Of a DNA stretch of 64,000 nucleotides, positions 26,496 through 29,478 are shown piece by piece. The notes under the pieces were generated by a model. It was not told where the DNA came from, searched no databases, and worked only from the letters and a program-made list of their open reading frames with translations. Each line of letters starts with the position of its first letter. The stretch's first letter is position 1. Source of the DNA: Planctomycetota bacterium (GTDB taxonomy: Bacteria > Planctomycetota > JAJSAM01 > JAJVHW01). The DNA lies in NCBI GenBank assembly GCA_024277065.1, contig JAJRVY010000179.1, forward strand, positions 7,645 to 71,644, in the 5' to 3' direction. The translations under genes were made by a program, and so were the position numbers.

Positions 26496-28925
26496 ATGCC
26501 GCGCCGCCGCCACCTCATGCCCGTCGTGCTAGCGTTCGCGGTGCTCCTCGGCAGCGTCGCGGCGCTGCTGCGGAGCGGCCCGGACGCCCGGCAGGAGAGG
26601 GCCGCGGCGCGGGCGGCGGGCGATGCGGACGCGGTGCCCCGCCGCGCCGTCGCCCGGGCGCGCTCGACGGTGTTGCCCGCGGCGGCTCGGGGGGCGCCCG
26701 CGCCCGCGCCGCCCGCGCCCGCGCCGACAGCGGTCGTCGCCTTGTCTGCGGCGCCGCGTGTCGTGCCCGGTCGCACCGTGCTGCTGACGCACCTTCCGGC
26801 GCGGAGCGGCGACCCCGCGGGCATCGCGCGCGCTCTGCTCGCGGAGCACCGTGACGAACTGGGGCTCACGGCGATGCCCGGCGAGCTGGTCCTCGAGCGC
26901 GAGATCGACAGCCTCTCCGGGCATCACGTCCGCTACGTGCAGAGCGTCGGCGGCGTGCCCGTGTTCGGCAGCCGCGTCTCGGCGCACGTCGCACCCGACG
27001 GGCGTCCGTTGCTGCTGCGCGCCGATGTGTATCCGTTGGCGGGGATCGACGCCGCGCGCGCGCAGGTGCCCGTCATCTCGTCGCCCGCGGCGGCCGCGCG
27101 GGCCGTGCTCCTGCTCGCTGCAGACGACACGTCGGCGGCTGTACCGGGCGCAGCACCGCCTGCGCGCGTGTCCAGTGCGCCGGAACTCGTGATCCTGCCG
27201 CGCGGGCGCCGCGGCGTGCTCGCCTGGCACGTCGGAGTGCGCTCGGCCGCCGAGACGCTGCGCGTGTTCGTGGACGCCGCGGACGGCGCGGTCCTGCGGG
27301 CGGACGACGTGCGCATCGCCGCCGACGGTCGTGGCCTCGTCTTCCGGCCCAACCCCGTCCACGCCACCGGCAACGGCTCCCTCCGTGACCAGGGGGACCG
27401 TGATCAGGCCGCACTGACGAACGCCCTGGAACTCGTCACGCTGCCTCGTCTCGACGGCAGCGGCTATCTCGTGGGGACGTGGGCCCACCTGCGGGACTCG
27501 CCGGTCTCGACTTTCCGGGCCGACCTCGACTGGACGTGGGTCAAGCGCTCCCATCACGCGTTCGAGCAGGTGATGGCGTACTACCACGTCGATCGCGTGC
27601 AGAACCGGCTGCGCTCCCTGGGCCTCACGAACGTCAACGCCGAGTCCCAGCGTGTGAACGCCCACGCCGGCACGCGCGACCAGTCCATCTACGATGTCTT
27701 CGACGACCGCCTGGAGTTCGGCGACGGGGGCGTGGACGACGCCGAGGACGCCGACATCATCGTCCACGAGTACGGACACGCGGTGCAGTTCGACCAGGTG
27801 GGGTCGTTCGGGCTCACCGGCGAGGGCGGCGCGATGGGGGAGGGCTTCGGCGACTTCCTCGCAGTCGTGTTCCACGAGTCGGCGCGGCCCGCCTGGGATC
27901 CCCTGTTCGCCTCGTGGGACGCGACCGCCTTCGTCGATCGCAGCCCGCCCTTCCTGCGCCGCGTGGACCGCGACAAGGTGTTCCCCGGGGACTACGTCGA
28001 TCAGGTCCACGACGACGGCGAGATCTGGTCGCGGTTGCTGATGGACCTGCGCTATCTGATCGGCGCGGACGACGCCCTACGCGTCGTCATCGAGTCGCAC
28101 TTCTACCTCACGCCGAACGCCCGTTTCCGCCACGGTTGCGACGCGCTCCTTGTCGCCAACCTGGCGCTGCGCGAGGGCCGCGACGATGCCTCGATCCGGG
28201 CGCTCATGGTCGCGCGGGGGCTGCCGTTCACCGTGCCGAGCGTGCCGCTGCCCCCGGAGGAGGACTCCGAGGACAACGACAGCGCCGCTACCGCCGCGCC
28301 CCTCGCCGCGGGACGCTACGAGCGCTTCCTCCTGGCCGACGAAGACTGGTTCCGCATCACCGTGCCGCCCTTCAGCCGCGTCGTCGTGCGCGCCGATCAC
28401 GACCCCGCGGCGTTCGACATGGACCTCGAGGCGTACACGCCCGGTGGCGCGCGCGCGGCCGTCTCGGCGCAGCCCGGTGGGATCGAGGTGATCGCACTGT
28501 CGGCCGGCCCGGAGGGCGGCATCGCGCTCGTGCGCTGTTTCCACGCGGACCCTGCGGCGATCGTGCCGGGGGCCTACGATCTGACCGTCACGGAGACCGA
28601 CCTGGAGTTCCTGGGGCCCGTGCAGACCGTCGTGCGCCGCATGGAACCCGGAGCCACGTGGGCCTTCCGCATCGCCGTCGCGCCGGCCAAGGTGGACGAC
28701 GGCGCGCGACTGAAACTGCGCACGAAGAAGCTGCGCCGCGGCGCCAAGACCGACCTGCGCCTGTTCACACCCGATCGCGTCGAGATCGTTGCTGCCGCCA
28801 CCGCCCGCAGGCGCCGCGGTGGCCGGGCCGTCGTGGACGTGGATGCCAGCGGGGACTGGATTGCGGTCGTGACGGCCCGCGAGGGGCAGGCGGGCCGCAC
28901 GAAACTGCGCGTCAAGCTGAAGTGA
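26496..28925 (+). CDS. Secreted zinc metalloprotease. It has an N-terminal FTP-type propeptide, an M36 (fungalysin)-like catalytic domain (HEYGH ... EGFGDF), and a C-terminal bacterial pre-peptidase (PPC) domain.
   Basis: HExxH zinc-binding motif, a downstream E-G-F-G-D motif, and a PPC-like C-terminus. Signal/TM region near the N-terminus. Confidence 0.7.
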   Translation: MPRRRHLMPVVLAFAVLLGSVAALLRSGPDARQERAAARAAGDADAVPRRAVARARSTVLPAAARGAPAPAPPAPAPTAVVALSAAPRVVPGRTVLLTHLPARSGDPAGIARALLAEHRDELGLTAMPGELVLEREIDSLSGHHVRYVQSVGGVPVFGSRVSAHVAPDGRPLLLRADVYPLAGIDAARAQVPVISSPAAAARAVLLLAADDTSAAVPGAAPPARVSSAPELVILPRGRRGVLAWHVGVRSAAETLRVFVDAADGAVLRADDVRIAADGRGLVFRPNPVHATGNGSLRDQGDRDQAALTNALELVTLPRLDGSGYLVGTWAHLRDSPVSTFRADLDWTWVKRSHHAFEQVMAYYHVDRVQNRLRSLGLTNVNAESQRVNAHAGTRDQSIYDVFDDRLEFGDGGVDDAEDADIIVHEYGHAVQFDQVGSFGLTGEGGAMGEGFGDFLAVVFHESARPAWDPLFASWDATAFVDRSPPFLRRVDRDKVFPGDYVDQVHDDGEIWSRLLMDLRYLIGADDALRVVIESHFYLTPNARFRHGCDALLVANLALREGRDDASIRALMVARGLPFTVPSVPLPPEEDSEDNDSAATAAPLAAGRYERFLLADEDWFRITVPPFSRVVVRADHDPAAFDMDLEAYTPGGARAAVSAQPGGIEVIALSAGPEGGIALVRCFHADPAAIVPGAYDLTVTETDLEFLGPVQTVVRRMEPGATWAFRIAVAPAKVDDGARLKLRTKKLRRGAKTDLRLFTPDRVEIVAAATARRRRGGRAVVDVDASGDWIAVVTAREGQAGRTKLRVKLK

Positions 28926-29478
28926 TGCGGGCGCCCGACCAGCGCCCTTCGCCGAGGCCCTCGATCCGCCAACCCTCGACCTGCCAGCCCTCGAGGGCCA
29001 GGAGCGCGCGCTTGGCCGGGAGTCCGCCCCCGAACCCGCCCAGCCGCCGACCGGCGGCCACGACGCGGTGTCAGGGCACGACGAGGGGGATCGGATTGTC
29101 GCCGACGGCGCGGCCGACGGCGCGCGCCGCCCGCGGCCGCCCGGCACGTCGCGCCAACTCGCCGTACGTGACCAACTCGCCGCGGCGGACGGCGCCGAGC
29201 GCCTCCAACACCTCGGCCGCGAAGCCCGAGACGAGCGACAGGTCGAGCGCCAGTTCGAAGTCGCGGCGGCGGCCGGCGAACCAGTCGCGGAGCTGCGCGG
29301 CGGCGGGGCCTCCTGCGCTGCGTCGCGCCGTGGCCGTGTGCCGCGCGCAGAGCCGGGCGAGCGGCGTGTCGAAGTCCGAGGCCGGGAACGCCAGGAGCGC
29401 GAGCCCGGCCGCGGACGTCGCGCCGCGCAGCGTCCCCACGGGCGACCGGACGTCGAAGACGGAGATCGTGGCCGTCAT
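28912..29478 (-). CDS. ogt: Methylated-DNA--protein-cysteine methyltransferase (Ogt/MGMT) with an in-frame TGA at the catalytic-Cys codon (29071-29073). Candidate selenocysteine recoding, or alternatively a nonsense pseudogene.
   Basis: The N-terminal ribonuclease-like domain and the helix-turn-helix TYGELA...RAVG..[8 protein letters not shown] are present. The residue where C of the PCHRV motif should be is encoded by TGA. The frame continues as [28 protein letters not shown], a conserved MGMT C-terminus, to a stop at 28912-28914. The ATG overlaps the upstream gene stop (ATGA). Confidence 0.7.

Follow-up and report, generated by a model that had tools for sequence, protein, structure and literature searches.

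In a 64,000-nucleotide (nt) stretch of a Planctomycetota bacterium contig (JAJRVY010000179.1; hereafter the window), the gene for an O6-alkylguanine-DNA alkyltransferase (ogt, MGMT family) is interrupted by a TGA exactly at the codon for its catalytic cysteine. We consider it probable, at about 0.85, that the gene specifies a full-length alkyltransferase with selenocysteine (Sec) as the alkyl acceptor. A preliminary description of this DNA had proposed a candidate Sec-containing alkyltransferase, a reading now supported by conservation of the TGA in orthologues, by purifying selection on the codons that follow it, and by the family-wide pattern of a hairpin directly 3′ of it.

The gene occupies 28912..29478 on the minus strand and comprises 188 codons including the in-frame UGA, from an ATG at 29478-29476 to a final TGA stop at 28914-28912. 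Its frame is broken only once, by the TGA at 29073-29071. Translation and alignment with homologues place this proposed Sec codon (29071..29073, minus strand) at the alkyl-acceptor Cys of PCHRV, giving P-U-HRV, just where the preliminary description had put it. Downstream, 52 codons remain open (28915..29070, minus strand; HRVVAAG...LLALEG...GRWSGARITSA), a count that had been given exactly, and they do match the MGMT C-terminus in domain and structure alignments. When Cys is set at the TGA, the match to Pfam PF01035 (MGMT DNA-binding/active-site domain) runs across it (profile positions 2-80/81, E 1.4e-29, 102 bits versus a cut-off of 27), and NCBIfam TIGR00589 (ogt) scores 93.7 bits versus a cut-off of 46.4; the NCBIfam search of the Ogt protein returned this generic ogt model only and no Sec-specific MGMT model. 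The best match among solved structures is the Mycobacterium tuberculosis OGT 4WXC, and the alignment to it takes in the active site and reaches the LLxLE motif.

The features expected of an Ogt domain are present: the helix-turn-helix, the Arg finger (RAVG), the Asn of NP (within DNP), the His-Arg following the nucleophile and the Glu of LLxxEG, with the His146-, Arg147- and Glu172-equivalents all located in the part 3′ of the UGA according to alignment to solved MGMTs. The protein thus shares its fold family with the Cys-type Ogt/MGMT proteins (4WXC/4BHB, human AGT 1EH6, Escherichia coli Ada-C 1SFE), together with the motifs TYGE, RAARAVG (Arg finger), NP, P-x-HRV and LLxxEG, and differs in that its nucleophile codon is UGA, not UGC. 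The Cys of PCHRV is therefore not encoded, and only insertion of Sec would put a functional equivalent in its place. Global reassignment of TGA is rejected, as the preliminary description had also concluded, since TGA is the main normal stop of the window and terminates 24 of the 30 open reading frames (ORFs) supported by third-position GC content (GC3). A screen of the window for other genes with an in-frame TGA found none.

The strongest evidence comes from orthologues. In the protein collection that we searched, the window product is stored as a truncated protein of 135 residues (P0001). Another entry, P0012, has 132 residues, is 67% identical to the window product and has the same ...IVVP end; it is encoded on two contigs, L001 (ENA) and L002 (NCBI GCA_024712245.1), that are one synonymous single-nucleotide polymorphism (SNP) apart. 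Both read CCC TGA CAC CGT GTG GTG GCC GCC GGT CGG CGG CTC, with TGA at the same codon as in the window and an identical 16-nt GCCGCCGGTCGGCGGC, with synonymous differences on either side. After the TGA their frame is open and conserved to its end (...RWSVARIATSA, then stop), and the gene upstream, ATGA overlap included, is the same as that in the window. Between the window and L001, 47 codons after the TGA can be aligned; by the Nei-Gojobori method their synonymous divergence (dS) is ~1.0 and the ratio of nonsynonymous to synonymous divergence (dN/dS) is 0.21, compared with 0.46 before the TGA. The same post-TGA ratio for the window and L003, a Cys-encoding relative, is 0.29. By these ratios, constraint on ogt after the stop is no weaker than before it. 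The window, L001 and a metagenomic locus, L048, share one and the same 16-nt hairpin, even with synonymous sites near saturation.

Other relatives have Cys. The closest full-length ones (P0002-P0005, from loci L003-L005) have TGC, as do all of the aligned orthologues L003-L010, so that the window UGA aligns with the Cys of PCHRV in these and with TGA in L001 and L002. Among the Cys forms the hairpin is lost in L004 and L005; L003 keeps the stem, its Gly codon being GGC and its loop GGCC. The window and L001 use GGT, a rare Gly codon (11.5% of Gly codons in the window), giving the loop GGUC. The SECIS-like stem of L003 (L003:475-560, from JGI 3300027987; SECIS, selenocysteine insertion sequence), with TGC and a GGCC loop in the Cys orthologue nearest L001, looks like a recent Sec-to-Cys state or a pre-Sec state, and could act as a natural control. 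Once orthologues are compared, the TGA itself is far beyond chance.

A scan of metagenomes with the pattern CCNTGACAYCGNGTNRTNGCNGCNGG yielded 53 loci, and in 47 of these a genuine MGMT gene has TGA in place of the Cys codon, with ~30 conserved codons after it. These 47 (L046-L096) lie on contigs of 54-72% GC. The remaining six matches (L059, L066, L071, L091, L097 and L098) were rejected as unrelated sequences that are not MGMT. Together with the window and L001, the 47 loci make up 38 distinct Sec-form sequences, which fall into about five clades in a neighbour-joining tree: the window; L001, next to the Cys form L003; L048/L074; L046/L047/L093; and one large clade with the motif ...NPLPLIFP-U-HRVVAAGGLGGFGSGL. 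L048, although in another clade and on a 61%-GC contig, has exactly the hairpin of the window, and L046/L047/L093 hold the 6-bp helix by change on both sides (GCGGCC...GGCCGC or GGUCGC). Following its UGA, the window candidate has Ala-Ala-Gly-Arg-Arg-Leu codons and a GGUC tetraloop, whereas the large clade has Ala-Ala-Gly-Gly-Leu-Gly-Gly codons and a loop of 3-5 nt. In about 20 contigs of the large clade a tRNA-Met(CAT) gene is found ~1.5-3 kb away, indicating a conserved neighbourhood. Ada-like fusions at L046 and L093 were considered and rejected, the upstream ORFs of 796 and 433 residues being GC-rich open frames.

The proposed upper hairpin of a bacterial SECIS (bSECIS) element lies at 29041..29060 on the minus strand. 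Counting from the U of UGA, folding of the region gives arms at nt 14-21 and 26-33 and a loop at nt 22-25; the core is GCCGCC (nt 16-21), the loop GGUC (nt 22-25; window 29052-29049) and GGCGGC (nt 26-31), and two G.U pairs (nt 14-15 with 32-33) lengthen the stem, as had been proposed in the preliminary description. The mRNA between the UGA and this core reads CACCGCGUCGUG. An extended stem is predicted at 29031..29073 (minus strand), its lower helix taking in the UGA as in fdhF, with a minimum free energy (MFE) of -24.5 kcal/mol for nt 1-48. The bSECIS model that we applied (PMC13188914) calls for an apical loop of 3-9 nt, an upper stem of 4-16 bp, G at loop positions 1-2, a UGA-to-loop distance of 16-37 nt and an MFE <= -7.5 kcal/mol; the isolated hairpin, with 8 bp, 18-nt spacing, a 4-nt loop starting with GG and -13.0 kcal/mol, lies within all of these limits. 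No Rfam family, SECIS-type or other, matches at the hairpin.

Likeness to the SECIS element of E. coli fdhF had earlier been suggested, and comparison with E. coli genomes bears it out. The fdhF stretch UGACACGGCCCAUCGGUUGCAGGUCUGCACC is found at 100% identity in the matches listed, and fdhF is covered in 5419 of 5426 complete E. coli genomes; when folded, its GGUC loop takes up nt 22-25 from the U of UGA, the position found in the window hairpin. Both elements thus have UGA-CAC, 18 nt and a GGUC apical loop at nt 22-25, and both have an upper helix directly 3′ of the UGA and a lower helix that includes it. They differ in that fdhF has a bulged U (nt 18) below the loop, whereas the window stem is uninterrupted, its upper part consisting of a perfect 6-bp G-C helix plus the two G.U pairs; beyond the loop there is no sequence similarity, and the window element is a predicted SelB site.

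Several observations weigh against reading the UGA as Sec, or at least against the weight that can be placed on the hairpin. The 61-nt region folds at -36.8 kcal/mol, compared with an average of -30.6 for dinucleotide shuffles (z = -2.0). Among the 1064 TGA trinucleotides of this 72%-GC window, 18% pass the generic bSECIS model and 0.5% an E. coli-like version. When the 15-residue peptide was recoded synonymously, with resampling weighted by the codon usage of the window itself, 10% of the recodings had a stem of at least the observed length and 18% a local energy as low as that observed or lower. The hairpin is weaker evidence than it looks because Ala-Ala-Gly-Arg-Arg-Leu codons fold in this way fairly often in a GC-rich genome; by itself it is weak evidence and cannot carry the argument alone. 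The geometry given in the preliminary description was thus correct, and the weight placed on it too great, with 10-20% of recodings doing equally well. That same proportion implies a predisposition to such hairpins in the peptide that follows the active site.

A hairpin without interruption that fits the bSECIS model at 16-26 nt was detected in 37 of the 38 distinct Sec forms and, among the 13 distinct Cys forms, in L003 alone, the Sec set being biased in that the scan pattern fixed part of the 5′ arm (GCNGCNGG). The association is significant by Fisher's test (1e-9) and by clade (5/5 versus 1/13, p = 7e-4), in statistics that ignore phylogeny and rely on a Cys control of only 13 sequences. 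At the second Ala codon, the paired wobble base is C in 39/39 Sec forms and 4/11 Cys forms. Pairing within the helix of the large clade amounts to 96.7%, and paired wobble sites change only from G-C to G-U; no compensatory change on both sides and no excess of pairing over shuffles was found there, a lack of covariation that is expected, since the protein fixes two positions in every three. Total MFE did not discriminate Sec from Cys forms, since GC-rich Cys forms fold just as strongly, and the position-specific hairpin test was used instead.

The machinery for Sec insertion and the taxonomic distribution also count on this side. No selA, selB, selD or tRNA-Sec gene lies within the 64-kb window: Pfam scans of 40 window ORFs, 'gap' ORFs included, found no SelA, SelB or SelD, and ARAGORN found two tRNA-Ser genes only. 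One of these, tRNA-Ser(UGA) at 14232-14319 on the plus strand, was considered as a tRNA-Sec and rejected, an Rfam re-check (54 bits) showing an ordinary tRNA-Ser. The 53 metagenomic loci likewise contain no tRNA-Sec. Complete Sec-insertion sets (selA/selB/selD) exist in some Planctomycetes, namely Gemmata, Isosphaera and two Porphyra-associated strains, a precedent in favour of the Sec reading, and are absent from others, so the trait is patchy across Planctomycetota. All 26 homologues found in reference genomes carry Cys, those in the syntenic Planctomycetota metagenome-assembled genomes (MAGs) included. Finally, our literature search found no report of a natural Sec-MGMT that had been characterised biochemically and no experimental evidence for one. 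The remark in the preliminary description that no characterised selenoprotein MGMT was known holds to that extent, and misses that the family has been predicted since 2005.

These points bear on how the TGA could otherwise be explained. A single TGC-to-TGA nonsense mutation might have killed ogt recently, leaving the frame still open; one nucleotide change suffices, TGC is found in the closest full-length homologues and in all genome homologues, and the window contains no gene of the Sec machinery. Such a pseudogene is disfavoured because the post-TGA codons are conserved under purifying selection at 67% identity, and we consider it quite unlikely: the orthologue in other assemblies has the same TGA, the post-TGA codons, whose dN/dS is 0.21 with dS saturated, contain neither a frameshift nor another stop, TGA stands at precisely that codon, and nowhere else, in a further 47 MGMT loci, and the hairpin goes with the TGA forms. 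An error of sequencing or assembly at one base of a normal TGC could be suspected of single-contig MAG data, and its probability seems to us close to negligible, since the same TGA occurs in three independent assemblies and is followed by constrained codons. It was recovered independently in L001 (ENA) and L002 (NCBI), a SNP apart, and in the 47 metagenomic loci, and the GGT loop codon would require a second coincident error.

Read-through of the UGA without Sec, whether by near-cognate tRNA-Trp or tRNA-Cys or stimulated by the hairpin, is a further possibility; the products would be PWHRV, the motif of a damage sensor of the alkyltransferase-like (ATL) type, if Trp were inserted, or an ordinary Ogt at a low, regulated level if Cys were. 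ATL proteins encode Trp or Ala in place of the active-site Cys, and TGG is one step from TGA; a stable hairpin after a stop codon can generally promote read-through, and no Sec-machinery gene lies in the window. The window gene resembles the ATL proteins in combining the MGMT fold with an active site that lacks a Cys codon, but it encodes TGA, not Trp or Ala, with a candidate SECIS, and its nearest relatives are true Cys-type Ogt (PCHRV), not ATL. Moreover, in geometry and in its G-G-U loop the hairpin matches SECIS elements that bind SelB, the family is accepted as a predicted selenoprotein in genomes with selA/B/D, and selection could fix TGG or TGC were Trp or Cys wanted. All variants of Sec-free read-through taken together are unlikely. 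It is less likely still that the functional product is the 135-residue fragment, comprising the N-terminal domain and helix-turn-helix without the active site, with the remainder either a relic or made separately from an internal GTG at 29061. Gene callers and the public protein database do treat the gene in this way (P0001, 135 aa), and a GTG-initiated ORF of 49 aa is present; yet the part after the UGA is more constrained than the part before it, the Pfam domain would be split mid-way, and no activity is known for a fragment without PCHRV.

If the UGA is indeed decoded as Sec, events would proceed as follows. SelB with Sec-tRNA(Sec) and GTP would bind the hairpin (nt 14-33) as the ribosome approaches and, competing with RF2, deliver Sec to the UGA. 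The full-length Ogt would then move the alkyl group from O6-alkylguanine irreversibly to the selenolate, which, as suggested by the engineered human AGT C145U, would already be deprotonated at physiological pH and so need less activation than a thiol. Without selenium, or without the Sec machinery, translation would stop at the UGA and leave an inactive fragment of 135 residues. SelB binding, Sec insertion and repair activity are all steps that we infer from the gene and its relatives. A more speculative idea, in our judgment quite improbable, is that natural Sec-MGMTs do more than repeat the Cys reaction at higher speed: the Se-alkyl selenocysteine might be regenerated (e.g. by selenoxide chemistry or demethylation), converting a stoichiometric suicide protein into a recyclable enzyme; if true, this would justify the cost of Sec insertion.

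The 'methylated-DNA-protein-cysteine methyltransferase' has been a predicted selenoprotein family since Wu et al. 2005 (PMC1287953). Its prototype is CHY0809 (ABB14497.1) of Carboxydothermus hydrogenoformans, which the genome paper regarded as striking and recent (PMC1287953). Two members were reported from the Olavius symbiont metagenome (PMC1976440) and one in the GOS (Global Ocean Sampling) data (PMC2398784); the family appears in reviews of 2022 and 2026 (PMC9312934, PMC13188914) and is accepted as a predicted selenoprotein in genomes having selA/B/D (PMC1287953). Like these known Sec-MGMTs, the window gene has UGA for the catalytic Cys of PCHRV, a stem-loop directly 3′ and a frame that goes on through the conserved C-terminus, and in both cases Cys homologues vastly outnumber Sec forms. 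Unlike them, it comes from a 72%-GC Planctomycetota genome, not from a Firmicute or a marine delta-proteobacterial symbiont (CHY0809 was compared by description), and the Cys/Sec switch behind it probably took place independently, within a group of syntenic orthologues.

An artificial precedent shows that the chemistry works in vivo. Human AGT engineered to have Sec at the alkyl-acceptor position (C145U) guards delta-ada delta-ogt E. coli against N-methyl-N′-nitro-N-nitrosoguanidine (MNNG) (Haruna et al. 2014, PMC4150793), and the Sec form, unlike the Cys form, no longer requires Asn137 (PMC4150793). The window protein differs in keeping the Asn137-equivalent (DNP); and, where the engineered protein is UAG-encoded and EF-Tu-delivered without SECIS, the window gene would be natural and dependent on SelB and SECIS.

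Sec-MGMT as a kind of predicted selenoprotein is thus already known, and current concepts are unchanged. The modest novelty of the window gene is a high-GC Planctomycetota Sec-MGMT candidate with Cys orthologues at the same locus and fdhF-like SECIS geometry. Since the orthologues at the syntenic Planctomycetota locus have Cys, the switch would have been from Cys to Sec within this lineage, and it would have been an easy one: a few synonymous changes suffice to take the codons of the conserved peptide (VAAG-RR/GL-GG) to a SECIS-like hairpin. That proximity suggests why the MGMT family switched repeatedly, and the data favour MGMT as a hot spot of recurrent Cys-to-Sec switching, its VAAG..GG peptide being intrinsically near a SECIS hairpin. 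The metagenomic loci are evidence that Sec-MGMTs are considerably more numerous, and more polyphyletic, in metagenomes than the survey counts of 2005-2008 indicated. A simple DNA pattern sufficed to recover 47 candidates, and Sec-MGMTs are systematically mis-called, both P0001 and its orthologue P0012 being stored truncated at the UGA (135 and 132 aa). That a single-use MGMT should spend costly Sec machinery is counter-intuitive, as noted in 2005 ('striking'); E. coli-like SECIS geometry combined with close Cys orthologues at the same locus makes a clean natural pair for asking what Sec buys in alkyl transfer.

The gene upstream of ogt (29475..30722, minus strand) encodes a protein of 415 aa, and its TGA stop overlaps the ogt ATG (ATGA); the two genes are probably co-transcribed and translationally coupled. 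The 415-aa protein has no Pfam or NCBIfam family. Its N-terminus is signal-peptide-like, and the gene lies beside MGMT in all relatives whose flanks are long enough (L001-L004, L006 and L007); its product may be a functional partner of Ogt. On the other side a convergent gene for an M36/fungalysin-like metallopeptidase (26469..28925, plus strand) overlaps the 3′ end of ogt by 14 nt, and this overlap (28912-28925) is also found in L003 and L004.

Nine consecutive genes (window 19669-39100) are collinear with the contigs of L006 and L007, at 43-79% protein identity. L007 belongs to a contig of 'Planctomycetota bacterium isolate Dive100_bin1.14' and L006 to an uncultured-bacterium MAG contig; the accessions of the collinear contigs are JAJRPF010000066.1 (Planctomycetota MAG) and CALKVK010000033.1. 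Its members are genes for a CarboxypepD_reg protein, an M18 aminopeptidase, a product without assignment, the M36-like peptidase, Ogt, the 415-aa protein, a glycosyltransferase-like protein, a sulfatase, a protein with a YceI domain and a Ser/Thr kinase; the orthologous MGMT in both L006 and L007 is of the Cys type. This collinearity makes a Planctomycetota lineage the most likely origin of the window.

Elsewhere in the window, long GC3-supported ORFs without a Pfam family (E <= 1e-5) lie at 1-4747, 24426-26405, 33949-35418, 41892-42986 and 54096-55838, all on the plus strand, and family-less long ORFs include those of 1004 and 578 codons at its left end. Two very large HEAT-repeat proteins, the second with an additional VWA domain, are encoded at 8311-11865 and 14554-17526 on the minus strand (1185 and 991 codons stop-to-stop), and their genes flank a bifunctional-nuclease gene and a tRNA-Ser gene.

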